A stretch of 64,000 nucleotides of DNA, taken from the NCBI GenBank assembly GCA_009729775.1, contig GCA_009729775.1_4081.1; one strand, written 5' to 3'. Source of the DNA: Escherichia coli (GTDB lineage: Bacteria; Pseudomonadota; Gammaproteobacteria; Enterobacterales; Enterobacteriaceae). The notes below the pieces were generated by a model. The model made no database searches. It worked only from the letters and a program-made list of their open reading frames with translations, and was not told the origin of the DNA. Below are positions 25,113 to 59,407 of this stretch, in pieces. The translations under genes were made by a program, and so were the position numbers. Each line of letters begins with the position of its first letter. Position 1 is the stretch's first letter.

Positions 25113-28100
25113 ATGTACTCAATAAAAACTGACTTAGATATTACTGGTGCTGGTACGGTTGGTAAGGATCTTTTAGTCAAAGGAAATGCTGTTTTCAACA
25201 ATAACCTAACTGTAAATGGTACTGTAACTTTTGCAAATGCAACTTTTACTGCCATTGAATCATCAACTGCCAATATTACATCTACTTTAGATGTAGGTGG
25301 CAAAGCAACACTTTCTGGTGGTCTTGGTGTTGAGGGTAATACTACAATCGGTAGTGCAGTGGTCGGGTCTGATACAGCAACAATTAATTCAAACGCTACC
25401 TTTAACGGTACTGTATCAGTTGGTTCTGATTTTACACAAACTGCTGGTACAACCACTCTACAAGCAACTAAAGTTAAAAACTTAGAAGTTGCTGAAACAA
25501 CAGCATTTAAAGGTAATATTACTGCTGATGTTGGGACTACTGCTGCATTTGATAAAGTTACTGCTAATACCGCAGAAATTACTAATGTAAGTACAACAGA
25601 TATTAGTAGTACTGGTACTGCTACATTTAAAGATGTGACAATTAGTGGTACACTTGGTGGTGAGTTTAATCTATCTGACTTAAATGCAGTAACATTGAAC
25701 GTTACTGGTGCATCTAACCAACAAGGTGCAGTAACTTTCGGTGCTAACGTAACTGGTATTAACAGTACTGCTACTTTTAAAGACATTCGTATTGGTTCTA
25801 ACTCTGAATCACAAACCTTCAGATTAAGCTTCCCTTACACTGCTCCTGGTAAACGCCCAACTGTTATTCTACAAAACGAAATTCAGTCCGAGCTAATGTC
25901 ACCTGCAAACTTGACAGTATTGACCTCTGCTTCTTTTGGTAATGCGTCATTATCTTCTTATGGTATTACTGGTAATGGTCTAAACAAATTAGATTATCTA
26001 ACAGTTTCTGGTAACAATACACAATCACCAGACACACCACTATTAGAAGTTCAAAAAGGCAAAACTAAAGTTGCGGACTTTGAAGTAACCGGAACTGCAA
26101 CTATTCCAAATATCGAAAGTACTGGTACTGCTAATTTTAATAACATTAATGTTTCTGGTCTTCTTGGTGGAACGTTCCAACTAGACGATATCAATGCAGT
26201 ATCTTTGAACGTTACTGGTGTAACTTCATTAGTTGGTGGTGTTACTCTTGGTTCTAATATTACTGGTTATAACAGTACTGCATCCTTTAAAGCTATCAGC
26301 TTAGGTCAAAATAGTCAAGATGCGGCAGTGAAACTAGGTTTTGGATATACTGCACCAGGTCAACGCCCAACAGTTATTCTACCTAACGAAGTTCAATCAG
26401 AAGTCGTTTCTCCTTCTACATTGAACGTTCTTAAAACAGCAACTTTCGGTAACGCTTCTCTTTCCACTTATGGTATTACTGGTAACGGTCTAAACAAACT
26501 AGATTACCTAACTATTACTGGTAACGAAACACAAGCTCCAGGTACACCATTCCTACAAGTTGGTGGTAAAGCAATTCTTAATGATGTTGAATTTACTGGA
26601 ACAGTAACTGGACTAACTGTTGATGTTAGTGGTCAGGATCTAACACCTAATTCTGTTGTCGCGGCAGCAAATATTAAAGGTGCAACACTTGAAAGTACTG
26701 GTAACACTACCGTGGGTGCTAAACTAACTGTTACTGGTGATATTGCTGGTACAACTGCAACTCTTTCTGGTGCATTATCCGCTGGTTCAGTAAGTTCTGG
26801 TTCTATTACTGGTACAACTTCTGTATCTGCACCAACAATTAGTGCATCTACTGAAGTAACGGCTCCTACTATCACTGCGAGTGGAACTGTAAGTGGACAA
26901 ACAATTAACGGTACTAATATTAGTGCAACAACTCTGACTGCACCAACTATTAGTGGTAATACTAACTTCACAGAAAATGTTGATATTACTGGAAATCTAA
27001 CAGTTACTGGTACAGTAACCCCAGGTACAATTGATTTGAGTACTACTGATGTTAGTGCGAAATCAATCACTACTACCGCTGGTGCAAATATTGGTGGAGA
27101 TCTTGTGGTTCAAGGTTCTTTTGATTTATCAGCAGCAGACATTAACGTTAAATCACTAACTTCTTCTGGTATTGTTAAAAGTAATGACCTTGTTAATGCT
27201 AACGTACTTCCTGTACTTAATAGTACTACCATAACGGCAACTACTGTTAATGCTGATGATATAACTGTTACCGGATCTGCTAATTTGGGTACAATTTACT
27301 CAAGCTCATCTGTTCTAGTTGGGTCAACTTTAACTGTAACTGGTGAAACTACAACTGCATCGTTGGTTACCCCAACCATTTCAAATGCAAGTGGTGTCAC
27401 TATTTCCAATAATACAAATGTAACTGGTGACCTAACCGTTACTGGTGCAGTTATTCCAGGCTCTATCGATCTAGCAACAACTGATGTTAATGCTAAATCC
27501 ATTACTACTACTTCTGGTGCAACTATTGGTGGTAACCTAACTGTTAATGGTACAGTAGATCTTACTACTGCTGATGTTACTGTCAAATCTTTAACTAGTT
27601 CTGGTGCAATTGTTAGTAATGAATCTACAATTAGTAGTGTTCTACCTAAACTTCAAAGTACTGATGCAACTATTGCAACCCTTGGTTCAACAACTGCAAA
27701 TATTACTAATTTGAATGTTACTGGTGCATCTACCGTAGCTGACGTAACTTCTTCAGGTAAAGTTAAAGCAGTTTCTGTAGAAACCCCAACAATTAGTAAC
27801 GTTGATGGTGTATCTATTTCCAATAATACATCTATTACTGGTGACCTAACAGTTTCTGGTACAGTAACACCAGGTGCAATTGATTTGAGCACAACTGATG
27901 TAAGTGCAAAATCCATTACTACTACCGCTGGAGCAAATATTGGTGGAGATCTTGTTGTTTCTGGTACAGTTGATTTAAGTGGTGCTGATGTATCTGTTAA
28001 ATCTCTAACAAGTACTGGTATTATTACAGTTAGTAGTGCAGAAGGTATCAACGTTCTACCTAAAGTTCAAAGTACTGAAGTTACAGTGTCTGCTCTAAAT

Positions 28101-30992
28101 GCAACAAATGCAGTAGTTTCTGGTGATGTTTCAGCAGCAACAGCTTCAATCTCAGGTGCAATTACTGGTGGGTCAGCAACACTATCTGGTGTTGGAACTG
28201 CTCTAAATGTAACTAATAACGCAACTGTTGGTGGTGTACTTACTGTTGGTTCTATTACTTCAGCGGCAGAAAATGTATCCATTACTAAAAATACCGCGAT
28301 TACTGGTAATTTAGCAGTATCTGGAACACTAACTGCGGGTGTTATTGATCTTAGCACAACTGATGTGTCTGTGAAGACATTAACTTCGCTAGGTGATGCA
28401 ACCGTTCAAGGTAACTTAACTGTTGATGGTTCTATTGACCTAAGTTCTGCAAACATCGTCGGTGTAACACTAGAAAGTACTGGCTCTACCACTGTAGGTA
28501 CTGATTTGATTCTAACTACAGGTAACATTACAGGTAGTCCATCTATTTCTGGTAACTTGGGTGTAACTGGAACCACAACGTTAACTGGTGCAACTACAGT
28601 TTCAAATACATTGAATACTGCTGGTAAACTAACAGTTAATACTGGTGGTATTCAAGTAGTTGGTGGTGGTATCCAAGTTGATGCAGGAACTATTACCGCA
28701 CCAAGTGCTAATATTTCTGGTGACTCTACCCTTAATAGTGCAACTGTAACTACTACCCTTGGTGTTACTGGTGCAGCTAGTATGAATGGTGGCCTTACTG
28801 CATCTACCCTAGATGTAACTGGTGACAGTACTGTACAAAAACTAACTGTTAAGGGTGCATTTATTCCTGAAGGTGGTTTGGACCTATCTGGTGCTGATCT
28901 TAACGTGAATAGCGTATCTGCTGCAACCACATTAAGTGTTACTGGTGCTAGTACTCTAACTGGTGGCGTTTCCACTTCAACTGTTACTGCATCCGGTAAG
29001 GTAACCGCACAAGAATTAAGTACTGGTACATTGGCAGTAACCACAAATGGAACAGTTGGTGGTACTTTAGATGTAACTGGAAAGGCAACAGTCGGTTCTC
29101 TTGATTCAGGTGCAATATCTGCAACTTCTGGTACATTTAGTACTACACTAGGTGTAACTGGTGTAGCAACATTTGGTAACAATGTTAATATTACTGGCAC
29201 GTTAACTCCAGGTGCATTGGATTTATCTAGTACTGATGTAGATGCTAACAGTCTTTCTGTTGCAACAACCCTACATTCAAACGGCAATGCAACAATTGGT
29301 GGTACACTAGGTGTAACAGGTGCAGCAACTGCTCCATCAATAGCTCTTAATGGTGAAGGAACTGCATTAGCAGTTACTAACAATGCAACAATTGGTGGCA
29401 CACTAGGTGTAACTGGAAAGGCAACAGTCGGTTCACTAGATTCAGGTGCGGTATCTGCAACTTCTGGTACATTTAGTACTACAATAGATGTAACAGGTGT
29501 AGCAACCTTTGGGAATAATGTTAACATTACTGGTACATTAACTCCAGGTGCATTGGATTTATCTAGTACTGATGTTGTTGCAAACAGTCTTTCTGTTGCA
29601 ACCACACTACATTCAGATGGTAATGCAACAATTGGTGGTACATTAGGTGTAACTGGTGCAGCAACTGCTCCATCAATCACTCTTAATGGTGAAGGAACTG
29701 CATTAGCAGTTACTAACAATGCAACAATTGGTGGTACACTAGGTGTAACTGGTGCAGCAACTTTAGGTTCACTAACAACTTCTGGTGCAGTGAAAACTGG
29801 TTCTAATGTTATTATTGGTACTAAGATCGGTGAACAACCAGAAACAGTTCAGATTTTCCCTAACACTTACATCGCAGGTTCCTTGCGTGTAGACGGTGGT
29901 ATCAACGCTGATATCGATGTTAGTGGTCAAACGATCGAACCATATGCGGTTGTTGCTGCTGATACTATTAGTGCAGCAGGTAATATCACATCTGGTGCAG
30001 AATTGATTTCTAAATCTGCAACTATTGGTGATGTTGGTTCACAAAACAACAACTTAACCATCAATGGTAACGTAGTTAACAATGGTAACTTTACAGTAAC
30101 GGGTGTTCTAAACGCAACGCTAAACCAAGCTAACTCTGATGTGGCTGTTAAATCTTTAACTGCAACTAACAGTGTTGCTGCTGGTACTAGTATTACCGCA
30201 GGAACAAGCATTACTGCAACTGGTTTACTAAAAGGTAACACTCTTGAAGTAACCACTACTGGTTCATTCGGTGGTGCAGTTACTATGTCAAGTGGTGCGA
30301 ATATCACAGGAACTGTTGGTATTACTTCTGGTAACCTAACTGTCGGTGGTGATATTTCTGCAACTGGTACTGCTACCCTTGCTGCTACTTCTGTGACTAC
30401 AATTACTACTTCTGGTGCTGCTACTCTTGCTAGTGCATCTGTAACTGGTGCAGCAACCGTAGGTGGTACTTTAACTGTTACTGGTTTAATGACTGCAAAT
30501 GGTAGTGTTGTTCTAGGTGACGCTGCTGCTGATACATTAACTGTCAATGCAACATCTTCTTTCAAAGAAAATGCAGTATTTGATAAAGATGTAACTGTAA
30601 CTGGTCAATTAACAACTACTAATGCTGACCTAACTACTACAACAGTAACTACTAAAAAATATGATGTTATTCCTAATCAAGTAACTTCTTCTGTTATCGC
30701 ACCAACTGGTACTTGGACCCCAGACGGTACTAGCAACGTATACTTTATCACTCTAGATCAAGATACAACTCTAGCACCAATCACTGGTCTAATCGGGGGT
30801 GGTAAAGCATCTTCAGTATACATTTATGTTAAACAAGATGCAACAGGTAATAGAAACTTTACTACTGATGGTACTTATGCGGTTGTTGATGGTACACTGA
30901 ACAAAACTGCAAACTCTGTAACTATCTACCAAGTCATTTATGACGGTGTGAGTCCAGTAACAGATATGTTTATTGCACAACGTACTGCTTAA
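25113..30992 (+). CDS. giant repetitive tail fibre protein (1959 aa, Thr/Gly/Val/Ser-rich beta-repeat)
   Basis: GGAGGG SD. Multiple internal repeat families, including four ~65-aa modules (xTGDLTVTG...IDLSTTDVSAKSITTT...) and a near-identical tandem 112-aa duplication. Confidence 0.85.
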   Translation: MYSIKTDLDITGAGTVGKDLLVKGNAVFNNNLTVNGTVTFANATFTAIESSTANITSTLDVGGKATLSGGLGVEGNTTIGSAVVGSDTATINSNATFNGTVSVGSDFTQTAGTTTLQATKVKNLEVAETTAFKGNITADVGTTAAFDKVTANTAEITNVSTTDISSTGTATFKDVTISGTLGGEFNLSDLNAVTLNVTGASNQQGAVTFGANVTGINSTATFKDIRIGSNSESQTFRLSFPYTAPGKRPTVILQNEIQSELMSPANLTVLTSASFGNASLSSYGITGNGLNKLDYLTVSGNNTQSPDTPLLEVQKGKTKVADFEVTGTATIPNIESTGTANFNNINVSGLLGGTFQLDDINAVSLNVTGVTSLVGGVTLGSNITGYNSTASFKAISLGQNSQDAAVKLGFGYTAPGQRPTVILPNEVQSEVVSPSTLNVLKTATFGNASLSTYGITGNGLNKLDYLTITGNETQAPGTPFLQVGGKAILNDVEFTGTVTGLTVDVSGQDLTPNSVVAAANIKGATLESTGNTTVGAKLTVTGDIAGTTATLSGALSAGSVSSGSITGTTSVSAPTISASTEVTAPTITASGTVSGQTINGTNISATTLTAPTISGNTNFTENVDITGNLTVTGTVTPGTIDLSTTDVSAKSITTTAGANIGGDLVVQGSFDLSAADINVKSLTSSGIVKSNDLVNANVLPVLNSTTITATTVNADDITVTGSANLGTIYSSSSVLVGSTLTVTGETTTASLVTPTISNASGVTISNNTNVTGDLTVTGAVIPGSIDLATTDVNAKSITTTSGATIGGNLTVNGTVDLTTADVTVKSLTSSGAIVSNESTISSVLPKLQSTDATIATLGSTTANITNLNVTGASTVADVTSSGKVKAVSVETPTISNVDGVSISNNTSITGDLTVSGTVTPGAIDLSTTDVSAKSITTTAGANIGGDLVVSGTVDLSGADVSVKSLTSTGIITVSSAEGINVLPKVQSTEVTVSALNATNAVVSGDVSAATASISGAITGGSATLSGVGTALNVTNNATVGGVLTVGSITSAAENVSITKNTAITGNLAVSGTLTAGVIDLSTTDVSVKTLTSLGDATVQGNLTVDGSIDLSSANIVGVTLESTGSTTVGTDLILTTGNITGSPSISGNLGVTGTTTLTGATTVSNTLNTAGKLTVNTGGIQVVGGGIQVDAGTITAPSANISGDSTLNSATVTTTLGVTGAASMNGGLTASTLDVTGDSTVQKLTVKGAFIPEGGLDLSGADLNVNSVSAATTLSVTGASTLTGGVSTSTVTASGKVTAQELSTGTLAVTTNGTVGGTLDVTGKATVGSLDSGAISATSGTFSTTLGVTGVATFGNNVNITGTLTPGALDLSSTDVDANSLSVATTLHSNGNATIGGTLGVTGAATAPSIALNGEGTALAVTNNATIGGTLGVTGKATVGSLDSGAVSATSGTFSTTIDVTGVATFGNNVNITGTLTPGALDLSSTDVVANSLSVATTLHSDGNATIGGTLGVTGAATAPSITLNGEGTALAVTNNATIGGTLGVTGAATLGSLTTSGAVKTGSNVIIGTKIGEQPETVQIFPNTYIAGSLRVDGGINADIDVSGQTIEPYAVVAADTISAAGNITSGAELISKSATIGDVGSQNNNLTINGNVVNNGNFTVTGVLNATLNQANSDVAVKSLTATNSVAAGTSITAGTSITATGLLKGNTLEVTTTGSFGGAVTMSSGANITGTVGITSGNLTVGGDISATGTATLAATSVTTITTSGAATLASASVTGAATVGGTLTVTGLMTANGSVVLGDAAADTLTVNATSSFKENAVFDKDVTVTGQLTTTNADLTTTTVTTKKYDVIPNQVTSSVIAPTGTWTPDGTSNVYFITLDQDTTLAPITGLIGGGKASSVYIYVKQDATGNRNFTTDGTYAVVDGTLNKTANSVTIYQVIYDGVSPVTDMFIAQRTA
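29076..29747 (+). repeat. near-identical tandem duplication (2 x 336 bp) inside the fibre gene
   Basis: Two consecutive in-frame 112-aa units (KATVGSLDSGA...NATIGGTLGVTG) differing at only a few positions; period 336 bp. Confidence 0.8.
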
Positions 30993-37391: not shown

Positions 37392-38816
37392 TTAACTACG
37401 TTGACGCTTTTTATCAGCTTCATATTCGTAGTGTACAGTCTCACCAAATGGTGCAACTTTATTTGGGTTACTGTGAATCACGAACAGTGTTTTACAGTAG
37501 TTTGGATCACCCCATGACTGCCACGGTTCACCATCAGTAAACATTACAAGCTGTTTAGGCTTGTAGTTGTCGTTCTTCATATGAACCCATACTGCTTCAA
37601 AGTCAGTACCACCACCACCTTTTACTGGATATTCCAGAATCTTACGTTCTTCGCCAGTTTTGTAATCCTTTACAGTATAAACTTCAGTATCAAAAGTCAT
37701 GATACGAATCTTAAACTGTTTGAATTGTTTAGTGATGCCAAGAACTTCACTAATGAAATCACGAAGCATATCTTCAGAAATAGACCCAGAAGCATCTAGT
37801 GCAATCGCAATATCAATATCATCATCTGGTTTCATCCCTGGGTAAATTGGATTACCATAGAATGAACCATTAGAACCAAAACCTGCACCCCAAGAACGAC
37901 GATTAGGATTTTGATATGTTGCATCAGACTTCAACCAACTACGAAGTGTACGTTGAAGTTTTGAACGCCAGTCAATCTTTGGTTCTTTAAAGTTGTTAAT
38001 CATACGAGCGATTTCTGCTGGTGTACCACCTGCACGAGCAGCATTCATCATTGCTGTTTTGAAATCATCCATGTAATCACGTTTTTGCTGTTCACTTGAA
38101 CCACCCTCTTGACCTTCTTGTGGAACGTCATGCTGGTCAATGGTAGTACCTTTTGGTTTACCCTTACCATCTTTAATATCGCCAAAAGTACCGCGATTTT
38201 TACCTTCACCTTCGCCACCACCACTTTGTGGTTGACCTTCACCTTCACCATCTTCTTTTTGTTCTTCTTCTTCAAGAAGAATGTAAATCTCTTCTGCGGT
38301 CATACCTTCATATTTTTTATCATACAACCATGAACTTTGGATTTTTCCAATTTTCTCACGAACGATGATTTGGTTAATGGCATAATCCGCTGCACGGTTA
38401 TAACGTTGTGGATCACGCATACCACGACGAAGGAAGTGATCGTAAGCACAGTGTAGAATTTCATGACAAATTACAGCAATAAGGTTTTCATCAGTCAAAC
38501 CTTCAGTCATTTCTTTTAATTGTTCGTCTGTAACTTCAGGATGCTTTTCACGAATAGCTTCTTCATATTCTTTCTTTTTAGATGGGTCTTGAATACCCAT
38601 TACAAATTCTACGTTGTAGAATAGATGTTTACCATCAACTGCTAGAGTACGACACCATGTATTATTAGCAACTGGACGTAAACGTGAAGCGAGTACACCA
38701 AAGAATGGTGCAGTTAACATCAAAGATGTACGAGCCAGAACCAGACGATCTTGACATTCTTTCTGGAGTGCCGGAGATACTTCATTGAATCTGGAAGTAG
38801 ATTTGTTATCTGACAT
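37392..38816 (-). CDS. vWA-domain protein with N-terminal HExxH metallopeptidase-like domain (MoxR-partner type)
   Basis: HEILHCAYDH (HExxH) in the N-terminal half; C-terminal vWA with MIDAS DASGS (IAIALDASGSISE) and a downstream FTDGEP. Confidence 0.8.
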   Translation of the reverse strand: MSDNKSTSRFNEVSPALQKECQDRLVLARTSLMLTAPFFGVLASRLRPVANNTWCRTLAVDGKHLFYNVEFVMGIQDPSKKKEYEEAIREKHPEVTDEQLKEMTEGLTDENLIAVICHEILHCAYDHFLRRGMRDPQRYNRAADYAINQIIVREKIGKIQSSWLYDKKYEGMTAEEIYILLEEEEQKEDGEGEGQPQSGGGEGEGKNRGTFGDIKDGKGKPKGTTIDQHDVPQEGQEGGSSEQQKRDYMDDFKTAMMNAARAGGTPAEIARMINNFKEPKIDWRSKLQRTLRSWLKSDATYQNPNRRSWGAGFGSNGSFYGNPIYPGMKPDDDIDIAIALDASGSISEDMLRDFISEVLGITKQFKQFKIRIMTFDTEVYTVKDYKTGEERKILEYPVKGGGGTDFEAVWVHMKNDNYKPKQLVMFTDGEPWQSWGDPNYCKTLFVIHSNPNKVAPFGETVHYEYEADKKRQRS

Positions 38817-38837
38817 GTATATTTCCTCGTTTAGTTA

Positions 38838-38869
38838 AGATAAAAGAAGGATACCATTAGGCATCCTTC
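38838..38869 (-). terminator. hairpin/attenuator between the MoxR-like and vWA genes
   Basis: 10-bp stem with one mismatch, followed on the minus strand by CTTTTATCTT directly ahead of the vWA SD. Confidence 0.4.
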
Positions 38870-38890
38870 TTGTCAACAACTCTTTGTTAA

Positions 38891-40216
38891 TTAGCCAAGA
38901 GAGCGTGCTTTACGTACAAGTTCAGAGTACTTAGCGATGAAATCTTTAAACGCTGGTACATCTTTAATGGAAATCGCAACCTTATGAAGCGTGATGGTAC
39001 GAATTGCCAGTACTGCCAGTTCTGCTTGAGTTGCAGAGAAGTTATGGTCTAGGAAGGTGATGAAGTTGTTACACAGTTTACCCCATTCTTCCACTGGTAG
39101 ACGTTGTTCTTGCTTCTCATTGAACAGGTCGATAATTTTATAAACCAAGTTCAGAGTGATAAAGTAGTTCGCAGAAATATCCAGAGTTGCGTCGATTTCT
39201 TTGATTTCACCAGACAGAATAGACATAGTATCTGGTAGTTTAGCAACGTTCTCAACGTACTCAATGTATTCAGTTGCAACACCTTCACCAACACGACCAG
39301 CAATCATTGCACGGAACACTTCTTTATCAATTGTCTTAGTTTTCTTGAGATCTTCGTAGCGTGCTACTGCTTCCCATGAACGTGGAGAAGTACCACCGCT
39401 GTGAGAAGGATCTTGTGGACTAAGTGTGTTAAAGTACTTAGAACCAGTGTTGTTGATGAACGCAACAGTTGCTGGGTTCAAACGTTTTGCAATCGCATAA
39501 TCGTTAATCCAATCTTGATGGTAAGGAATCATCTCAATGTGAGTCATACGGTCACGCAGTGGTGTAGCAAGAGAGAAAGTTACACCGCCATCAGTTTCAC
39601 GGTTACCTGCTGCAAGAATCAGTGCAGTCTTAGGTAGCTTCATCTCACCAACACAACGGTCGAGGATTAGCTGATAAGACGCTGCCTGAACAATAGGCAT
39701 TGCAGAGTTAATTTCGTCAAACAGAATAACACCTTTCCAATCTTCGGACAATTTCAGAACTTTAGGTGCAGCCCATACTACCGCAGTTTCAGCTACATAA
39801 TCTTTTGCTTCGGCAAGCTCAGATTCTTTCAGAAGAGAACCGTCAGTTTTACGGAAAAGCTTCTCTGGTACTGGAATACCGCGAAGGTCACTTGGTTCGA
39901 TTTGAGACAAACGGAAATCGATAAAGTTAGTATCTTGGTCGATTAGTTTTGCTTCAAATGCAGCCAGTTCACGGCGTAGCTGATCAGCATTTTCAGGGTC
40001 AGCTTCGATTTGTTGTTTCATGAACTCGATTTTAGCTACGTTATCTTTACGCAGTGGGTAATTTTCATCAGCATATTGACGAGCGATAGCAGACTTACCG
40101 ATACCTGGGCTACCCCAAATCATCAGGCTATCTTGAATCATGTCAGCCAGTGCCATTGCTTCTTTAGCTTTCTTTGGAGTCAGTTTAACGTTCAGGATAT
40201 CGTTTTGAGTAGTCAT
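38891..40216 (-). CDS. MoxR-like AAA+ ATPase (AAA_5 / CobS-like)
   Basis: Walker A GSPGIGKS, Walker B ILFDEINSA, sensor region LILAAGNRETDGG; single AAA+ module plus C-terminal helical domain. Confidence 0.8.
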   Translation of the reverse strand: MTTQNDILNVKLTPKKAKEAMALADMIQDSLMIWGSPGIGKSAIARQYADENYPLRKDNVAKIEFMKQQIEADPENADQLRRELAAFEAKLIDQDTNFIDFRLSQIEPSDLRGIPVPEKLFRKTDGSLLKESELAEAKDYVAETAVVWAAPKVLKLSEDWKGVILFDEINSAMPIVQAASYQLILDRCVGEMKLPKTALILAAGNRETDGGVTFSLATPLRDRMTHIEMIPYHQDWINDYAIAKRLNPATVAFINNTGSKYFNTLSPQDPSHSGGTSPRSWEAVARYEDLKKTKTIDKEVFRAMIAGRVGEGVATEYIEYVENVAKLPDTMSILSGEIKEIDATLDISANYFITLNLVYKIIDLFNEKQEQRLPVEEWGKLCNNFITFLDHNFSATQAELAVLAIRTITLHKVAISIKDVPAFKDFIAKYSELVRKARSLG

Positions 40217-40385
40217 GTATATATTTCCTTTTGTTGGATAAAATCGTTTAAGTTTCTATTATAGCCAATCCGTGGGCAAAAGTAAAGGAACTGTGTTAAA
40301 ATAATTTAACTTATCAGTTCCTTTGTTACTTCATGAATCATCCGTGTGTTTAAAAGGTAAATCTCTTTGCTGTCTTGATGTGAAC

Positions 40386-40413
40386 ATTATATCACATCGT
40401 TTCAACTTGTCAA
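40386..40413 (-). promoter_or_regulatory. sigma70-like promoter P1 (TTGACA-N16-TGaTATAAT)
   Basis: Consensus -35 and extended -10 when read on the minus strand; about 170 nt upstream of the MoxR-like start. Confidence 0.55.
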
Positions 40414-40478
40414 TCACTTTTTTTCTTTTTTTTCAAACTCACATCTTGTGTCGCTTGAAAACTTTATGTCTGATGCTT

Positions 40479-40506
40479 ATTGTATCACATCATTCTATCT
40501 TGTCAA
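40479..40506 (-). promoter_or_regulatory. sigma70-like promoter P2 (TTGACA-N16-TGaTACAAT)
   Basis: Second copy of the same promoter architecture, about 90 bp upstream of P1. Confidence 0.5.
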
Positions 40507-40529
40507 CATTTATTTTTAATTCATTTTTC

Positions 40530-40910
40530 TTACATATGAATAGAAAATAACTGTTTAAAATCATCACAACACAATGTTAATTCAGTTATTATCATTGCAT
40601 CTGTCAGATATATGTACTGACCTTCAACATAATAAGGTGAAGTACATATTCTGTCAAGTGATGTAAACATTATAGAACTTTTAAATTCTCTTTGCAAGGG
40701 GATTTTTGTAAATTCATAAAGATTATTTTCTTTACAAATTCCATACCCAAACTTGCTAAGACGTAAACCACCGCCAGTTCTGAAATTTTCAAAAATTGAC
40801 ATCAGAAGCATACGGTCTGTTATTTCTGAATCTGATTCATGTACTTCCCTAACTTTGGAAAGTACATTATTTTGATATTCAGTACTGTTATGTGATGGTT
40901 CTGGAAACAT
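40530..40910 (-). CDS. hypothetical protein
   Basis: 126 aa ORF, 3 nt from the upstream gene. Confidence 0.6.
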   Translation of the reverse strand: MFPEPSHNSTEYQNNVLSKVREVHESDSEITDRMLLMSIFENFRTGGGLRLSKFGYGICKENNLYEFTKIPLQREFKSSIMFTSLDRICTSPYYVEGQYIYLTDAMIITELTLCCDDFKQLFSIHM

Positions 40911-40913
40911 ATA

Positions 40914-41309
40914 TTAGTCTCCAACAAAACCTTGACGTGCAGCATAAGATGGTGCACCAGGTTCATTATAGTGTTGTACACCTTCTTTGTCAATTGTTGG
41001 TCCCATACCTTCAGTACCAAAACAACCTGCAATGGCTTCCAACACTTCGTCATCAGCAACTTCAGTACTTTCATCATTATATCGAATATCAGACAAAATG
41101 TCACAGGCTTTTTGTAGTTTATCTACAATTTCTTTTTGGTCTTCACCAGATTTAATCTTATCAACAATGTTAATAAGACATTTGGTAATATCCTTAAGAA
41201 CATCAACTGCTACAACATCGGATTCAACTTCAACTGAAAAACTTTCGTCTTCATCTCTTCCGGTAATTTCGTCTAACGCTTCAACTAGTTCACGATAATT
41301 ATATTGCAT
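40914..41309 (-). CDS. acidic hypothetical protein
   Basis: 131 aa, Asp/Glu-rich. Confidence 0.6.
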   Translation of the reverse strand: MQYNYRELVEALDEITGRDEDESFSVEVESDVVAVDVLKDITKCLINIVDKIKSGEDQKEIVDKLQKACDILSDIRYNDESTEVADDEVLEAIAGCFGTEGMGPTIDKEGVQHYNEPGAPSYAARQGFVGD

Positions 41310-41310
41310 A

Positions 41311-42291
41311 TTATTTGTCTCCTAAAAATTTCTTGTATTTTTCTTGGAGACTTTCAAAAATATCTTCTACTTCTTCATCAGAATCATCTTCCAAGTCAAT
41401 GTTACCTTCAGGTGAATCATCTTCTTCACTTTCATTAACATTTAGTGGGTTATCTCCTAATGCAGTGCCTGGGAATTTTGGTTCAAATTTATGAACACGA
41501 TTTTCGTTCCCTTCATTATCATAATACTCAGGTTCTGGACGATTGTCAAGATCTTCATCTACAACACGTCTCCAATAAAACTGATTGCCTTTTGCAATTA
41601 CAACAAAATGGTCACCTTCAACACCATTAGTCTTTAGTTGACCATCACGAACTGCATCAGCTTCTGTTCCATATGGACCGTAATCAGTACTGTTAGATGG
41701 TTCTTCATCTTCAGAGATACTTAGATCTGGTAGAAATTGGGTATCTTTCATTTCTTTATCGGTGGCAGGATTACCCTCTACGGAAAAATCTTCGTCTTCT
41801 TCTTCGTTAATACCAGCAAGGGATAGCATACGACTAAAATCGAATTCTTCTTCAATAATTTCTTCTTCTTCCTCATCGTCTTCTTCAACTGATTCTAGTT
41901 GAGGTTGACCACTAAGGTCAAGAGAAAAATCTTCTTCACCTTCTACACCTGGTTCTGAAAATTCAGCATCCATACTAACTTCATCTGAGTCAGCACCAAA
42001 ATCACCAACATCAGCGGAAAGATCATCAACTGCCGCTGCTAGTGGGTCTTCAACTGAAGTTTCAATTCCACCAATTTCTTCTTCAGCACCAATAGAATCT
42101 AGATCTAGTGGAGCAATAGGTGGAAGAGATGGAGTCATAGACCCCATTGATGGTACTGGAGCAGCAACAACTGGGTCTTGACGTTCAGCTTGACCAGCAA
42201 GTGCTAACATACGTGATAGTGTTTCCAAATCATCAGATTCTAAACCTGCGATATCGATTTTAACTTGTGCTTCATTAATTTTTTTAGCCAT
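41311..42291 (-). CDS. hyper-acidic protein with Glu/Asp runs
   Basis: 326 aa with EEDDEEEEEIIEEE and many D/E clusters; duplicated SRML(A/S)LAG motif. Confidence 0.7.
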   Translation of the reverse strand: MAKKINEAQVKIDIAGLESDDLETLSRMLALAGQAERQDPVVAAPVPSMGSMTPSLPPIAPLDLDSIGAEEEIGGIETSVEDPLAAAVDDLSADVGDFGADSDEVSMDAEFSEPGVEGEEDFSLDLSGQPQLESVEEDDEEEEEIIEEEFDFSRMLSLAGINEEEDEDFSVEGNPATDKEMKDTQFLPDLSISEDEEPSNSTDYGPYGTEADAVRDGQLKTNGVEGDHFVVIAKGNQFYWRRVVDEDLDNRPEPEYYDNEGNENRVHKFEPKFPGTALGDNPLNVNESEEDDSPEGNIDLEDDSDEEVEDIFESLQEKYKKFLGDK

Positions 42292-52699: not shown

Positions 52700-52744
52700 G
52701 ACAAGTTCCTTTAGATTAATATTATCATTATATCACATAATATG

Positions 52745-54546: not shown

Positions 54547-55023
54547 TTATTTTAGAATGTATAAGTGTTTTTCTGCATTGACCAGACGGTGATCAATGAT
54601 TTCTTTGATAACGTTCCAGTTACCGCCGCCCAAATCGGCTCCAATTTTCGGGAAATGTACATGAACATCTCGATCAACTTTACAAAAATAATTTAGATGT
54701 TTGAACACATCGTCAATTGCATCATAACTGACATATTTAGCACCGTCATTACCGTACATTTTTTGGGTAATACAGTTTGCAATAATCAAATTATCGTTAA
54801 TTGCTGAATATGCAATTTGTCCAATTCTAAGAAATCCCATTTCCTTTTCATATGCTTTATAATCATCATATGCCATTGGATAACGATTTCTTAGTTCTTT
54901 TGCAAAACCTGAACCCATTTTACCCTGTGCGTTACAACCATGAGCAATTATATGTAATGCATTTTGATCATCGGTAACAGTACTGAACAATTCAAACAGA
55001 TTACCTCTGTGTTCATGTATCAT
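54547..55023 (-). CDS. macrodomain protein (TARG1/OARD1-like ADP-ribosyl hydrolase)
   Basis: ALHIIAHGCNAQGKMGSGFAKELRNRYP and FPKIGADLGGGNW match the TARG1-type motifs (AHCISEDCRMGAGIA ... PRIGCGLDRLQW). Confidence 0.75.
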   Translation of the reverse strand: MIHEHRGNLFELFSTVTDDQNALHIIAHGCNAQGKMGSGFAKELRNRYPMAYDDYKAYEKEMGFLRIGQIAYSAINDNLIIANCITQKMYGNDGAKYVSYDAIDDVFKHLNYFCKVDRDVHVHFPKIGADLGGGNWNVIKEIIDHRLVNAEKHLYILK

Positions 55024-55033
55024 TATATTCTCC

Positions 55034-55063
55034 GAAAAGAAAGGACTCTTTTACAGAGTCCTT
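55034..55063 (-). terminator. terminator/attenuator hairpin upstream of the macrodomain gene
   Basis: AAGGACTCT-tttac-AGAGTCCTT stem followed on the minus strand by UCUUUUC, then GGAGAA SD and ATG. Confidence 0.45.
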
Positions 55064-55071
55064 ATTTTAAA

Positions 55072-55314
55072 TTATTCTTCTTCACCGAAACGGATTTTCT
55101 TTAATTCTTTTCGATGCTTTCTAGCTATTGTACTTTTGTGAAGTCTATTACTGCGTTTTGTGTCTTTTGTAATGTACCATGAATCTTCTGGTGCATCATA
55201 ATCACAAAATCCATCTTCCGTAATTGTTCCTAAAAATGCAGATTTTTTAGGAATATTAGTTTGAGCTTTAGCCTGAAATTGACCTTTTGCTAATTGTTCA
55301 CGAAAACTGAGCAT
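55072..55314 (-). CDS. hypothetical small basic protein
   Basis: ORF track start is TTG 55329; the ATG at 55314 (MLSFREQ...) follows GGGAGA by 7 nt. Confidence 0.5.
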   Translation of the reverse strand: MLSFREQLAKGQFQAKAQTNIPKKSAFLGTITEDGFCDYDAPEDSWYITKDTKRSNRLHKSTIARKHRKELKKIRFGEEE

Positions 55315-55360
55315 AATAGTATCTCCCAAATTGTTAAGAAGAACTTTTTGTTCTTCACAT

Positions 55361-55603
55361 TTATTTAGGGTTGCCAGAAACCTTCACATATTTGATAAAT
55401 GCCAAAATATCATCTTTACTAAAAGATTTTACAATAAATTCGACAGCCGAATCATACTGTTCTTGTTTAGATAGATATTCTTTCATTTTGTTAATTTTAA
55501 TCTGGGCTTTTTCTTTAGCTATTGAAATATCAGGAATTTTGAACTCTACTCCCAACGTATCAGCTAGTTGTTTTGCACGAGATGATACTTTTTCAATATC
55601 CAT
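55361..55603 (-). CDS. hypothetical small protein
   Basis: ORF track start is TTG 55612; the ATG at 55603 forms a TAATG stop/start overlap with the glutaredoxin gene. Confidence 0.55.
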   Translation of the reverse strand: MDIEKVSSRAKQLADTLGVEFKIPDISIAKEKAQIKINKMKEYLSKQEQYDSAVEFIVKSFSKDDILAFIKYVKVSGNPK

Positions 55604-55851
55604 TAGTTCCAACGACCTTCTTTAAGACCTTCAATAAATCCAGTACAACCACCTGGTACATAAATGTCATTTACGAAAATTTGAGGAACTTGACGAACTG
55701 GTTCACCACAAATTTCAGACAGTTTTGAACCATCGATACCTTCAGCAACAATATCTACAAACTCCATTTCAAATTTATTTTGTTCACATACAGCTTTTGC
55801 AGTGTCGCAAAATTTACAACCAGTCTTGCGACCATAAATTTTAACTTTCAT
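55603..55851 (-). CDS. glutaredoxin (T4 NrdC-like)
   Basis: 82 aa; CxxC active site in IYGRKTGCKFCDTAKAV; resembles T4 NrdC (CVYCDNAK). Confidence 0.75.
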   Translation of the reverse strand: MKVKIYGRKTGCKFCDTAKAVCEQNKFEMEFVDIVAEGIDGSKLSEICGEPVRQVPQIFVNDIYVPGGCTGFIEGLKEGRWN

Positions 55852-55852
55852 G

Positions 55853-56251
55853 TTATTTCCTTCTATTTCTTTGAAAAGCTTTAACAGCTTTAATAATACT
55901 GTTACACATTCGTTCAGTCAAATACTTTTGACATTCTCGTACATCAATGTACATGAACTTATCCAATTCTGGATGACTCTTACCATATCTATTAGTGTAA
56001 GTACTTTTACAAACTAATTCATCTGGTATTGGTTTGTCTTTGGCAGTATAAAAGAAAAGTACTAACCTTTTTCCCTTTCTATAGGATACATCACCAAGAA
56101 ACAGAAGATCATCTTCATCGATTTCGTATCCTGTCTCTTCGAAACATTCACGTACAGCAGCTTCTTTGAAAGTTTCATTACCCTCAGCTTTCCCTTTAGG
56201 TAAATCCCAATGATTCTGTCCGTGTTGTATGTCCGATAAGTATCTGACCAT
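55853..56251 (-). CDS. Nudix hydrolase
   Basis: Nudix box GKAEGNETFKEAAVRECFEETGYEI. ORF track begins with GTG 56254; ATG at 56251. An extended -10 (TGgTATAAT) lies ~12 nt upstream, suggesting a near-leaderless mRNA. Confidence 0.75.
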   Translation of the reverse strand: MVRYLSDIQHGQNHWDLPKGKAEGNETFKEAAVRECFEETGYEIDEDDLLFLGDVSYRKGKRLVLFFYTAKDKPIPDELVCKSTYTNRYGKSHPELDKFMYIDVRECQKYLTERMCNSIIKAVKAFQRNRRK

Positions 56252-58625: not shown

Positions 58626-59021
58626 TTATAAAAAGTAATTATACAGTTTATTGTACAATATAAAAAGGTCTTTCACATTATCATAAGTAATATCAGATAC
58701 ATCATGAATTAATGATAACTGAAAAAATGAAGCTTCGTCTATTTCTGCTGGAATTATAACATCACCATCGTCTTCGTCCATTTTATTAGTGTAGTATTTT
58801 ATGTGATCTACATTCAACTCAATAGAGAACGCAATGTTGGTTTTTGTATAATCTTCAATTAATCCAATATATTGAGATTTTTCATTAATAAAAAATCCAA
58901 TCCCAACACAACGGTTATCTGGATATGGATAGTACCATCTATTAATAACTAGGTGTTCAGGTAAGTCCATATCATGTGTTGATATTATAGATTTTACAAT
59001 TTCCATCCAGGAATAATTCAT
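58626..59021 (-). CDS. hypothetical protein
   Basis: 131 aa; GGAG SD; downstream of the HPF terminator. Confidence 0.6.
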   Translation of the reverse strand: MNYSWMEIVKSIISTHDMDLPEHLVINRWYYPYPDNRCVGIGFFINEKSQYIGLIEDYTKTNIAFSIELNVDHIKYYTNKMDEDDGDVIIPAEIDEASFFQLSLIHDVSDITYDNVKDLFILYNKLYNYFL

Positions 59022-59033
59022 AATTAAAACTCC

Positions 59034-59065
59034 ATAAGAAAAGGGACAGAATTAATCTGTCCCTT
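59034..59065 (-). terminator. terminator hairpin downstream of hpf
   Basis: AAGGGACAG-aattaat-CTGTCCCTT followed by a U-rich tract on the minus strand. Confidence 0.45.
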
Positions 59066-59074
59066 TAGTATATA

Positions 59075-59407
59075 TTACTCTTCGTTTTCTGTCAAATCAT
59101 CAAGAACTGGGTGTTCTGGATGGTTTCGGCGGTGTAATTTAATGCTTTTGTCTTTACTGAATACAGTTTCCATTTTTTCAAATGAATCACCAATTGCTTT
59201 GTATAAATCTGCTGCATCGGCAGTAACTGATTTACTACCTGATGTTAGAGTCACAGAGTATTGAGACTTATGCTCTTTCTTCACATGAACTTCAATATCC
59301 ATTACAGTTGAAGTACGGAACTTTTCAAGACATTTAGCACCATCGTAAATTGCATCTTGAATTGCTGTAGTAAAATCAACATTACCTTGAATATTTAATT
59401 TTAGCAT
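59075..59407 (-). CDS. hpf: ribosome hibernation promoting factor (HPF/RaiA/YfiA family)
   Basis: MLKLNIQGNVDFTTAIQDAIYDGAKCLEKF... aligns with E. coli HPF MQLNITGNNVEITEALREFVTAKFAKLEQYF and the C-terminal LYKAIGDSFEKMETVFSKDK with DMYAAIDGLIDKLARQLTKHK; AAGGTAGG SD. Confidence 0.75.
   Translation of the reverse strand: MLKLNIQGNVDFTTAIQDAIYDGAKCLEKFRTSTVMDIEVHVKKEHKSQYSVTLTSGSKSVTADAADLYKAIGDSFEKMETVFSKDKSIKLHRRNHPEHPVLDDLTENEE

Follow-up and report, generated by a model that had tools for sequence, protein, structure and literature searches.

A conserved leader with promoters, a terminator-type hairpin and a GGA-loop hairpin precedes an AAA+ ATPase gene in giant phages

The closest phage precedent for the locus described here is the PR'-tR' segment of lambda, in which a strong sigma-70 promoter, a short untranslated leader and a stable hairpin with a U-tract stand before the genes, the short terminated transcript is 6S RNA, and read-through is achieved only by Q-modified polymerase. 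Tandem strong early promoters are likewise familiar from lytic coliphages, as in T7 A1/A2/A3 and the T5 early promoters, and the rrn P1-P2 promoters are similarly arranged in tandem. Among short hairpins acting in promoter-proximal leaders, the boxB element of lambda nut is bound by N. A further class of leader hairpin is that recognized by CsrA/RsmA, for example in glgC, flhDC and CsrB, where a hairpin of at most 4 bp carries a GGA in its loop and SELEX gives the consensus RUACARGGAUGU (PMC7652899).

The locus in question lies in a 64,000-nucleotide stretch of DNA (the window) that belongs to a PBECO4/121Q-like Asteriusvirus jumbo phage, and all elements of the leader are on the minus strand (Table 1). 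An earlier note, made from the letters of this DNA, had described a 313-bp leader upstream of a MoxR-like gene. The 313-bp stretch is real, though the figure is the intergenic length, the predicted 5' UTRs being ~256 nt for P1 transcripts and ~163 nt for P2 transcripts; the gene, whose ATG is at 40216-40214, is better described as that of a MoxR-type AAA+ ATPase homologous to N4 gp24 (tblastn), with weak Pfam matches to AAA and AAA_3 and a match to phrog_1297. Next after it comes a gene for a DUF2201_N/DUF2201 VWA-like protein, and between the two is a terminator that keeps its position across genera with differing stems. The ATPase/VWA-like pair is conserved and is also present in N4-like and rV5-like phages. 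The best explanation of the 313-bp gap, to which we would give a probability of about 0.55 as a whole, is that it is the transcription-control region of this two-gene unit: early promoters would produce a leader RNA with an intrinsic terminator that attenuates and insulates the operon, and the GGA motifs would serve as protein sites.

Table 1. Coordinates of the leader elements and neighboring features in the window.
Feature	Sequence or composition	Position	Strand	Basis
A/T-rich UP-like tract 5' of P1	AGAAAAATGAATTAAAAATAAATG	40507..40529	-	sequence
P1, predicted promoter, extended -10	TTGACA (40506-40501), 16 nt, TACAAT (40484-40479), TG 40487-40486; 11/12	40479..40506	-	promoter scan
UP-like A-tract 5' of P2, within duplicated unit	GAAAAAAAAGAAAAAAAGTGA	40414..40436	-	sequence
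P2, predicted promoter, extended -10	TTGACA (40413-40408), 16 nt, TATAAT (40391-40386), TG 40394-40393; 12/12	40386..40413	-	promoter scan
BS1, upstream A-N-GGA motif	CACACGGATGA	40338..40348	-	comparison of leaders
hp1, two-tier terminator-type hairpin	outer arms 40324-40315/40293-40284, inner 40310-40305/40300-40295	40284..40324	-	folding, covariation
U-rich tail of hp1	TTTACTTTT	40278..40286	-	sequence; T columns invariant across 19 sequences
P3-like site	TTTACT, 17 nt, TATAAT; 10/12	40258..40286	-	promoter scan
hp2, short stem with A-N-GGA loop	GCCCACGGATTGGC	40264..40277	-	invariant GGA, covarying stem
Shine-Dalgarno (SD) region of ATPase gene	AAAAGGAAA	40224..40232	-	sequence and relatives' leaders
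AAA+ ATPase gene (N4 gp24-like, MoxR-type), putatively served by the leader		38891..40216	-	ORF, tblastn, Pfam, phrog_1297
Terminator between ATPase gene and DUF2201 VWA-like gene		38844..38871	-	terminator scan; fold energy -18.6 kcal/mol

The two candidate promoters nearest the upstream end, P1 and P2, start 93 bp apart, which agrees with the earlier observation of two near-perfect minus-strand promoters about 90 bp from one another. Both lie within a 48-nt direct repeat whose copies are 71% identical, both combine a 16-bp spacer with the extended motif TGnTAYAAT, and both are intergenic and oriented toward the ATPase gene. The entire window has just three sites that match at least 11 of 12 hexamer positions and carry the TG extension (40506, 40413 and 15068), all of them intergenic, on the minus strand and facing a gene; dinucleotide-shuffled sequences yield 0.39 such sites per window, or ~0.001 expected in 313 nt. 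The pair is far beyond chance and it is conserved, P1 in all Asteriusvirus genomes as well as in RaK2/Muenster (Alcyoneusvirus) and P2 in all Asteriusvirus genomes. With P2 absent from RaK2 and one further duplicate present in SP27, the number of copies is one in RaK2, two in the window phage and three in SP27. The region had been called unusually elaborate, and its promoter sequences are indeed there, yet much of that elaborateness is a lineage-specific tandem promoter duplication.

In their near-consensus boxes, TG extensions, upstream A-tracts and same-direction tandem copies, P1 and P2 resemble T7 A1/A2/A3, the T5 early promoters and rrn P1-P2. They differ from these in lying in the middle of a virion-gene region, before one two-gene unit rather than at an end of the genome, and in varying from one to three copies among close relatives. 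The motif itself is that of a generic strong promoter and not a phage-specific one, an IMG/VR scan with TTGACA-N11-13-TGTGATAYAAT having returned more than 120 unrelated contigs. The P3-like site downstream is kept in Asteriusvirus and reads TATCAT in RaK2; its conservation stops at Asteriusvirus and Alcyoneusvirus, the Munch-like and GAP32-like leaders lacking it, and we have not retained it as a conserved promoter.

Between P2 and the start codon, the transcript is predicted to fold into the two-tier hairpin hp1. Its outer arms, AAAGGAACTG (40324-40315) and CAGTTCCTTT (40293-40284), pair perfectly over 10 bp, four of them G-C, and are separated by 21 nt that hold an A/U inner stem of 6 bp (GTTAAA/TTTAAC) closed by a 4-nt loop. 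The fold energy of -15.2 kcal/mol (z = -4.3) is on a par with that of the window's other terminators, and orthologues fall between -13 and -15 kcal/mol in all lineages. A hairpin had been placed at about 40284-40322 with a 9-bp stem, and one is indeed there, with the stem and span corrected to 10 bp and 40324-40284; the T-rich tract said to precede it is only modest, the relevant U-rich tract being the one 3' of the hairpin (40286-40278). Read as RNA this tail is UUUACUUUU, in which seven of 9 nt are U and the run is broken once. When 22 distinct leaders representing four phage lineages are compared, 91% of cells pair and double changes occur at 7 of 14 pairs, giving a covariation score of 0.314 as compared with 0.101 in shuffles (none of 500 reaching 0.314) and at most 0.149 in slid controls. 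The hairpin is, then, conserved in related phages through compensatory changes.

In GAP32/CBB-like phages the orthologous hairpin has the canonical terminator form, AAAGCACUG, a loop of 4-8 nt and CAGUGCUUU, followed by CUUUUUU (the tail in GAP32-like leaders being TTTCTTTTTT / UUUCUUUUUU). ARNold annotates hp1 in G17 as a Rho-independent terminator, and the CBB paper lists the ortholog as terminator 'Torf215' in its Table S8 (PMC5259590). Because of this canonical form, the U-rich tail and the annotations in G17 and CBB, an intrinsic terminator or attenuator is the best reading of hp1, in preference to a processing site or riboswitch. In the window phage it may terminate weakly, given its 21-nt apical part and interrupted U-tract, and a simple terminator scan of the window did not call it.

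The likeness to lambda PR'-tR' lies in the arrangement: here, too, a strong, constitutive-looking sigma-70-type promoter, a short untranslated leader and a stable hairpin with a U-tract come before the genes, the hairpin in this case showing compensatory changes, and short terminated RNAs analogous to 6S RNA are predicted. The difference is that no antiterminator was identified at this locus. The upstream neighbor, an ORF of 126 aa belonging to phrog_15638 (unknown function; AlphaFold model pLDDT 79), was considered as a regulator or antiterminator and set aside, as it has no Pfam match and no PDB fold match (best E = 2.3). Nor was a leader peptide or an alternative antiterminator helix, as in known attenuators, found in the leader. 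An 11-codon ATG frame at 40340 has no SD and in A4 and RaK2 is only 3 codons long; it belongs to frames broken by indels, and we rejected it as a leader-peptide attenuator.

A distinctly unlikely alternative, in our estimation, is that the locus is a plain operon boundary, with hp1 terminating the upstream late virion-gene cluster and being too weak to stop P1/P2 transcripts, with P1 and P2 as ordinary promoters, and with hp2 and the GGA motifs without a role. The annotation of hp1 in G17 and CBB as the terminator of the upstream gene is in keeping with this, as is the frequency of terminator-plus-promoter modules in the other intergenic regions of the window; in GAP32-like phages, moreover, a -35-like box overlaps the upstream stop codon, leaving no space for a terminator before the promoter, and hairpins with an A-N-GGA loop are frequent by chance. 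The order of parts argues in the other direction. In those other modules the terminator comes first and the promoter second, whereas here the order is reversed, and the sequence promoter, hp1, ATPase gene is kept in every hp1-bearing lineage even though the promoter class changes, from TTGACA here to TGGGACA in Munch-like and TGAAACG in GAP32/CBB-like phages. The hp1-hp2 segment, furthermore, is 92-97% identical among Asteriusvirus genomes as compared with 80-94% in the flanking coding DNA, the GAP32-like hp1 has the look of a strong terminator, one that transcripts begun at the promoter would meet, and it is difficult to account for an invariant GGA loop on a covarying stem in four lineages if it has no function. 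The promoter before hp1 was missed in CBB because the search there covered only 100 nt upstream of each gene.

Downstream of hp1, Munch-like and GAP32-like leaders have no consensus sigma-70 promoter before the ATG, only a weak TATAAC-type -10 or late-like motif, which leaves expression of the ATPase gene in these phages needing read-through unless that motif is itself a promoter. The 10/12 P3-like site located 3' of hp1 in Asteriusvirus and the TATAAC-type motif of the other lineages may mean, for their part, that the gene can do without read-through.

The earlier note overlooked both this conserved order and a second, smaller hairpin, hp2. In 19 aligned leaders the GGA of its loop is invariant and the N position variable, and its stem covaries across lineages (AU/CG/UA and AU/GC/UA), reaching 4-5 bp in most of them. 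The window phage has a weak version, with just GCC/GGC and a C.U mismatch, and in L055 and L058 the terminator is at the same place and hp2 is missing. Nearly all lineages also have an A-N-GGA motif 10-25 nt 5' of hp1, and two such sites flank hp1; in the window phage BS1 supplies ACACACGGAUGA and hp2 contains CCCACGGAUUGG, with CACGGAU occurring twice in the window. Variable arms around an invariant center point to an RNA hairpin with a recognized loop and not to a DNA operator, and the GGA motifs are probably candidate sites for a sequence-specific RNA-binding protein.

This pattern is relevant to a stand-alone small RNA gene, an explanation that we consider possible if rather unlikely. Here P1/P2 and hp1 would produce abundant noncoding RNAs of ~100 and ~195 nt (~55 nt in GAP32-like phages) that act in trans, their single-stranded 5' part with its A-N-GGA base-pairing or titrating a protein, while the ATPase gene would be transcribed separately from P3 or a late-type promoter. 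In every lineage 30-155 nt separate a strong promoter from the terminator that follows it, and this interval contains no ORF, small ORFs not being conserved and frames being broken by indels; the product would have the canonical shape of a single-stranded 5' region, a terminator hairpin and a U-tail. The position of P3 (10/12) 3' of hp1, and in other lineages that of a TATAAC-like motif 20-25 nt upstream of the ATG, fits separate transcription as well. Yet hp2 lies 3' of the U-tail, outside the terminated RNA, and still shows RNA-type covariation, which implies a role for read-through transcripts; the 5' region, A-N-GGA excepted, shows little conservation from genus to genus, and P3 is conserved in Asteriusvirus and Alcyoneusvirus only. 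A small RNA is compatible with an attenuating leader, as partial termination would give both products.

Host CsrA is the best candidate for binding the GGA motifs, the A-N-GGA of both BS1 and hp2 fitting its consensus as a sequence match. Like the sites in glgC, flhDC and CsrB, the loop of hp2 would present its GGA on a stem of at most 4 bp (PMC7652899), and, as in CsrB, an A-N-GGA site is found directly 5' of an intrinsic terminator, the leader having two sites. The differences are that two or three sites are too few for a classical CsrA sponge and that overlap with the SD, as in CsrA-repressed leaders, occurs in some lineages only: the SD is AAGGA in the window phage, RaK2 and Munch-like phages, and GAP32-like SDs have no GGA. 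Hairpins with an A-N-GGA loop are, besides, common by chance in this AT-rich genome, 37 being present in the window as compared with 30 +/- 5.6 in shuffles, which is no enrichment. Searching by tblastn with E. coli CsrA for a phage-encoded homologue matched Pseudomonas, Vibrio and Xanthomonas phages and none of the Escherichia, Klebsiella or Cronobacter jumbo phages. We thus describe hp2 as resembling a CsrA site and have not classed it as one, because such hairpins are not above chance in the window. That the leader and the short hp1-terminated RNAs form a phage-encoded CsrA-binding RNA module, its two conserved A-N-GGA sites lying at the foot of the terminator hairpin and one of them being displayed by the hp2 loop, placing the ATPase/VWA-like operon under CsrA or titrating CsrA early in infection, seems to us doubtful.

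A comparison may also be drawn with lambda boxB. Both are short hairpins with a conserved purine-rich loop (hp2 having a 4-5-bp stem and a loop of 4-6 nt), and both are located in a promoter-proximal leader upstream of an operon with internal terminators. In contrast to lambda nut, no boxA-like element or N-like protein was identified here, and hp2, which sits after hp1, could not aid passage through it.

The hp2 pattern weighs, too, against a DNA-level function, for which transcription-primed replication origins such as the T7 primary origin and T4 ori(uvsY) are the models. On such an account, tandem promoters and A-rich tracts, both present here, would form an origin, or palindromes would be operators: an inverted repeat, GATGTGA-N8-TCACATC, flanks the P2 -10 on both sides, and hp1 and hp2 are palindromic as DNA. 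However, variable arms and an invariant asymmetric center are the signature of an RNA hairpin and the opposite of an operator's, the promoter duplication is lineage-specific, and GC skew tracks the coding strand with no switch at 40.3 kb, which led us to reject an origin at this locus. We regard the DNA-level explanation as highly improbable.

In T4, genes e, soc and 49 are the model for translational discrimination between long and short transcripts, and an analogous arrangement can be imagined here, improbable as we judge it. An upstream anti-SD (CCUUUU at 40357-40352, or UUCCUUU in the 3' arm of hp1) would mask the ribosome-binding site in P1, P2 and read-through RNAs, so that only P3 RNAs are translated. 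P3 does lie between anti-SD and SD, the leader as a whole is more stably folded than its shuffled versions (z = -3.3), and RNAalifold pairs CCUUUU with the SD AAAAGG, and GGAUGA with UUAUCC, in seven of seven Asteriusvirus/RaK2 leaders. The paired columns are, however, invariant and without covariation, the partners are 120 nt apart, the minimum-energy fold of the single sequence pairs CCUUUU locally, and Munch-like and GAP32-like leaders have no anti-SD. The long-range pairing, predicted and devoid of covariation, was accordingly rejected.

Known RNA families do not account for the leader. When 39500-41500 was scanned permissively against Rfam, nothing rose above sub-threshold noise (the best hit scored 23 bits, the gathering score being 60), Rfam on the orthologous leaders gave nothing at the gathering score, and ARAGORN found no tRNA or tmRNA. 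With filters off, a covariance model of hp1 plus hp2 (R1) found no second copy of the module in the window, its next matches (59017-59089 and 55018-55085) being ordinary terminators followed by an SD, and an IMG/VR pattern scan for hp1, tail and GGAT returned essentially the same ATPase leaders only, together with a small number of unrelated terminators. Conservation and covariation give good support to a regulatory element acting as RNA in the leader, as the earlier note had supposed; of the forms it might take, a processing site or riboswitch fits less well than a terminator or attenuator.

The literature we searched contained no transcriptome or 5'-end data for this phage group, Asteriusvirus RNA-seq included, and ncRNA003 of the sequenced relative PA5oct, considered as transcript evidence, was set aside because it does not adjoin an ATPase gene. 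The analysis demonstrates the sequence elements, their excess over chance, their conservation and their covariation; promoter use, start sites, termination efficiency, timing and protein binding are what we infer from them, as follows. P1 and P2, each with a consensus -35, an extended -10 and, upstream of them, an UP-like A-tract, would have arisen via duplication of a 93-bp unit and would be read by host sigma-70 RNA polymerase; they fit the early class proposed for this phage group, RpoD-like promoters with a preceding UP-like element (PMC5259590). Folding ~55 nt 3' of where P2 transcripts are predicted to begin, hp1 would act, together with its U-rich tail, as an intrinsic terminator, blocking read-through from the upstream virion-gene cluster and ending part of the P1/P2 transcripts as short RNAs of ~100 and ~195 nt. 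The ATPase gene would be reached only by the read-through fraction, with a possible contribution from transcripts of the weak P3, and the read-through RNAs would also carry hp2, where a protein bound to the A-N-GGA sites could tune mRNA stability or translation. Taken in this way, the locus looks like a transcription-attenuating control leader, assembled from familiar parts and common to a whole clade of giant phages.

Gene regulation in the Rak2-like jumbo phages (Asteriusvirus, Alcyoneusvirus, Mimasvirus and relatives) has been almost wholly inferred from motif searches. What this locus adds is a compact and conserved control module, consisting of promoter, leader terminator and GGA-loop hairpin before a conserved ATPase/VWA-like pair, and a correction to existing annotation, in which the hairpin is listed solely as the terminator of the upstream gene. 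P1 and P2, as compact near-consensus strong promoters, are of practical value as well. If the terminator attenuates or is regulated, it would be a first case, among these phages, of control through a leader, and if the GGA sites bind CsrA, early expression of the phage would be tied to host physiology, connecting a jumbo phage directly with the Csr system of its host.

In sequence terms, the element in front of the AAA+ ATPase gene is a predicted promoter-proximal intrinsic terminator that follows duplicated early promoters and is accompanied by a conserved GGA-loop hairpin. It occupies a 313-bp gap between two minus-strand ORFs, the 126-aa ORF upstream and the ATPase gene downstream, in a region (40100-40700) with 99-100% identity to PBECO4, SHEFM2K, 121Q, G17 and other Asteriusvirus jumbo coliphages. 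The earlier note had described tandem consensus promoters and a structured 5' UTR here, possibly a regulatory RNA element. That observation is confirmed, both promoters being present as it described them. Its broader proposal of a regulatory RNA leader also finds support, the hairpin being conserved with covariation.

Features of the ATPase locus, with positions in the window
Feature	Position	Strand	Description
126-aa ORF	40530-40910	minus	phrog_15638, function unknown; closes a run of virion-protein genes
P1	40506-40479	minus	TTGACA-16-TACAAT; TG extension and A/T tract upstream
P2	40413-40386	minus	TTGACA-16-TATAAT; TG extension and A/T tract upstream
Upstream A-N-GGA	40348-40338	minus	CACACGGATGA
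P3	40286-40258	minus	10/12 promoter-like site; limited to Asteriusvirus and Alcyoneusvirus
hp2	40277-40264	minus	GCCCACGGATTGGC; short helix directly 3' of the U-tail
AAA+ ATPase gene	38891-40216	minus	441 aa; N4 gp24-like, phrog_1297
ATPase/VWA-like terminator	38871-38844	minus	position kept in all genera (L014-L031 compared)
VWA-like protein gene	37392-38816	minus	DUF2201_N/DUF2201; next after the ATPase gene

The starts of P1 and P2 are spaced 93 bp apart and both promoters lie inside a 48-nt direct repeat (71% identical), so they are duplicates. Sites matching at least 11/12 with the TG extension number three in the 64 kb, all of them on the minus strand, intergenic and gene-facing, as against 0.39 per shuffled window and ~0.001 expected in the 313-bp gap. 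The 11-mer TGTGATAYAAT occurs four times (52737, 40489, 40396 and 15051), always on the minus strand and intergenic, and not once on the plus strand of the window. The P1/P2 pattern is also present in >120 unrelated viral contigs, and is thus that of a generic strong bacterial-type promoter. An inverted repeat, GATGTGA-N8-TCACATC (40398-40377, minus), flanks the P2 -10 box, with TGTGA/TCACA half-sites at an 8-bp rather than a 6-bp spacing, and a comparable repeat, ATATTAT-N11-ATAATAT, flanks the -10 at 52737; such repeats could be chance products of AT-rich DNA, or an operator.

When the gap was aligned for 11 genomes of Asteriusvirus and near relatives, P1 was present in all, including the Klebsiella phages RaK2 and Muenster, and P2 was confined to Asteriusvirus. 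RaK2 has one promoter only, while in SP27 (L002, 417-856, aligned to window 40544-40202) a tandem duplication of 97 bp, covering P2 and ~50 nt of leader with the CACACGGA motif, has added a third copy, so that promoter copy number ranges from one to three between close relatives. The orthologous locus of a distant relative, Vibrio phage 2.275.O (L013), has two copies of TTGTGTTATAACAATATGTAAGCAGTTAAGCGCA, which combines an extended -10-like box with the start of a hairpin (~639-673 and ~773-807, ~135 nt apart); the promoter before the same ATPase gene has thus been tandemly duplicated independently.

Orthologous loci fetched with the ATPase protein from GenBank phages, IMG/VR and metagenomes share one layout in all lineages with ≥54% ATPase identity, namely Asteriusvirus, Alcyoneusvirus, the Salmonella phage Munch-like and GAP32/CBB (Mimasvirus)-like phages and several uncultured lineages: the 126-aa stop codon, an extended -10 promoter, a 30-155 nt leader, a U-tailed hairpin, 45-75 nt, the Shine-Dalgarno sequence (SD) and the ATG. 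The class of promoter differs by lineage, being TTGACA in the window phage, TGGGACA-N15-TGTGATATAAT in the Munch-like phages and TGAAACG-N13-TGGTATAAT in the GAP32/CBB-like ones. Sites of the Munch class, GTGGGACAA-N12-TGATATAAT, occur twice in the window (37346-37317 and 56356-56327, minus); one of these lies directly 3' of a terminator at 37379-37358. The TGAAACG type is the "divergent RpoD-like" class tied to DNA-synthesis genes in the CBB paper (PMC5259590). In CBB, a Pectobacterium phage, such a promoter-like site overlaps the CBB_215 stop codon (L023 ~1050-1090; CBB ~124,553-124,581); it is absent from the published promoter table (PMC5259590), presumably because the search went no further than 100 nt upstream of a gene and the site lies >100 nt from the ATG.

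The large hairpin of the leader, hp1, combines perfect 10-bp arms (40324-40315/40293-40284) with an inner 6-bp stem, at -15.2 kcal/mol (z = -4.3), and the entire P2-to-ATG leader folds better than its shuffles (z = -3.3). Within Asteriusvirus the hp1-hp2 segment is 92-97% identical, compared with 80-94% for flanking coding DNA and 78-82% for the promoter region; the leader is selected at least as strongly as the genes. Lack of hairpin conservation in relatives would have refuted the earlier note's proposal; instead, hp1 covaries across lineages. In a MAFFT alignment of 19 distinct leaders, scored for two specified helices, these were 89% paired, six pairs changed on both sides, and the covariation score was 0.292 against 0.108 in shuffles (0/500 reached it; slid controls were far lower). 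A model-based alignment of 22 distinct leaders, which is tilted towards structure and hence not independent evidence, gave 91% paired, double changes in 7/14 pairs and 0.314 against 0.101. Three hp1 pairs are G-C or C-G in some leaders and A-U in others, and in RaK2 both arms are one base shorter (GGAACUG/CAGUUCC becoming GGACUG/CAGUCC). By these comparative measures, the hp1 hairpin is real.

Several observations point to hp1 as a terminator. In form and stability it resembles the other terminators predicted in the window, none of its U columns varies, the G17 record annotates it as a putative terminator (ARNold, -9.2), and its CBB orthologue is named "Torf215" (PMC5259590). The GAP32-like version (AAAGCACUG, a 4-8 nt loop, CAGUGCUUU, then CUUUUUU; -13 to -14 kcal/mol) has the predicted form of a textbook terminator. 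The window's hp1 looks weaker than this: its apical part is larger and two-tiered, its U-tract is interrupted, and a simple scan does not call it. Among more distant lineages, L055 and L058 carry another terminator stem at this position; where ATPase identity is 40-47%, as in a Vibrio phage among others, the hairpin is promoter-proximal but lacks a U-tract. Elsewhere in the window a terminator followed by a promoter is the usual order, whereas at the ATPase locus of all lineages the promoter precedes hp1, so that promoter-initiated transcripts must meet it. Between hp1 and the ATG of the Munch-like and GAP32-like leaders no consensus sigma-70 promoter was found, only a TATAAC-type motif akin to the late promoter proposed for the group. 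Read most economically, hp1 would be a leader terminator, insulating the unit from upstream late transcription and attenuating transcripts from P1 and P2.

The second, shorter hairpin, hp2, covaries in its stem across lineages (AU/CG/UA and AU/GC/UA), while its loop keeps A-N-GGA with GGA invariant. This combination of varying arms and a fixed asymmetric centre is characteristic of an RNA hairpin recognised through its loop and not of a DNA operator. Nearly all lineages have a second A-N-GGA, 10-25 nt 5' of hp1, and both sites read CACGGAT in the window. CsrA sites have the consensus RUACARGGAUGU, show GGA in hairpin loops on stems of ≤4 bp and come two per target, and CsrB carries one just 5' of its terminator (PMC7652899); the phage leader matches this description in its motif, its GGA hairpin loop, its two sites and the placement of one 5' of the terminator. 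The resemblance is kept as a lead only, because A-N-GGA-loop hairpins are no commoner in the window than chance allows (37 against 30 ± 5.6 in shuffles), the window's own hp2 stem is weak, L055 and L058 are without hp2, GGA falls within the SD in some lineages only, and no CsrA homologue was found encoded by these phages, so that the ligand would have to be the host's own CsrA. Being transcribed after the U-tract, hp2 cannot determine whether hp1 terminates; any action would be on read-through transcripts, via stability, translation or downstream elongation.

Neither an Rfam family, a tRNA nor a conserved small ORF was found at the locus, a scan of the window with a covariance model of hp1 and hp2 gave no second copy of the module, and GC skew at the locus gave no origin-like switch. 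The ncRNAs of PA5oct bear no relation to the locus. RNAalifold on Asteriusvirus and RaK2 leaders paired CCUUUU (40357-40352) long-range with the SD; the columns concerned are invariant, and the pairing is missing in other genera. In every case the 126-aa ORF is found ahead of the promoter/terminator/ATPase module, even where ATPase identity is only 40%; its product has no Pfam match, and its fair AlphaFold model (pLDDT 79, pTM 0.70) has no similar fold in the PDB. The ATPase gene region (38001-40000) has a G+C of 0.41 versus 0.33-0.36 around it, only 28001-30000 being similar. An 830-bp "gap" between ORFs of at least 100 aa (55023-55853, minus) contains several short ORFs and is therefore not non-coding; the first starts MKVKIYGRKTGCKFCDTAKAVCEQ, with a CxxC motif, and is glutaredoxin/NrdH-like in look.

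Each part of this element belongs to a known kind, and in two relatives the hairpin already carries a terminator annotation; three aspects appear to be previously undescribed: the conserved order of promoter and then terminator, the multiplication of the promoter, and the hp2/GGA motifs. A parallel lies at the 3' end of the ATPase gene, where the terminator stem is rebuilt between genera (GGATGCC, GGATACC, GAGGATGAC or GGGGC) and is overlapped, in the window and RaK2, by a TTGACA/TTTACA-17-TATCCT promoter-like site with a TG extension; no clear promoter was seen before the VWA-like gene. Given this position-conserved terminator ahead of a gene with no clear promoter, leaky terminators within operons seem to be a design feature of this phage group.
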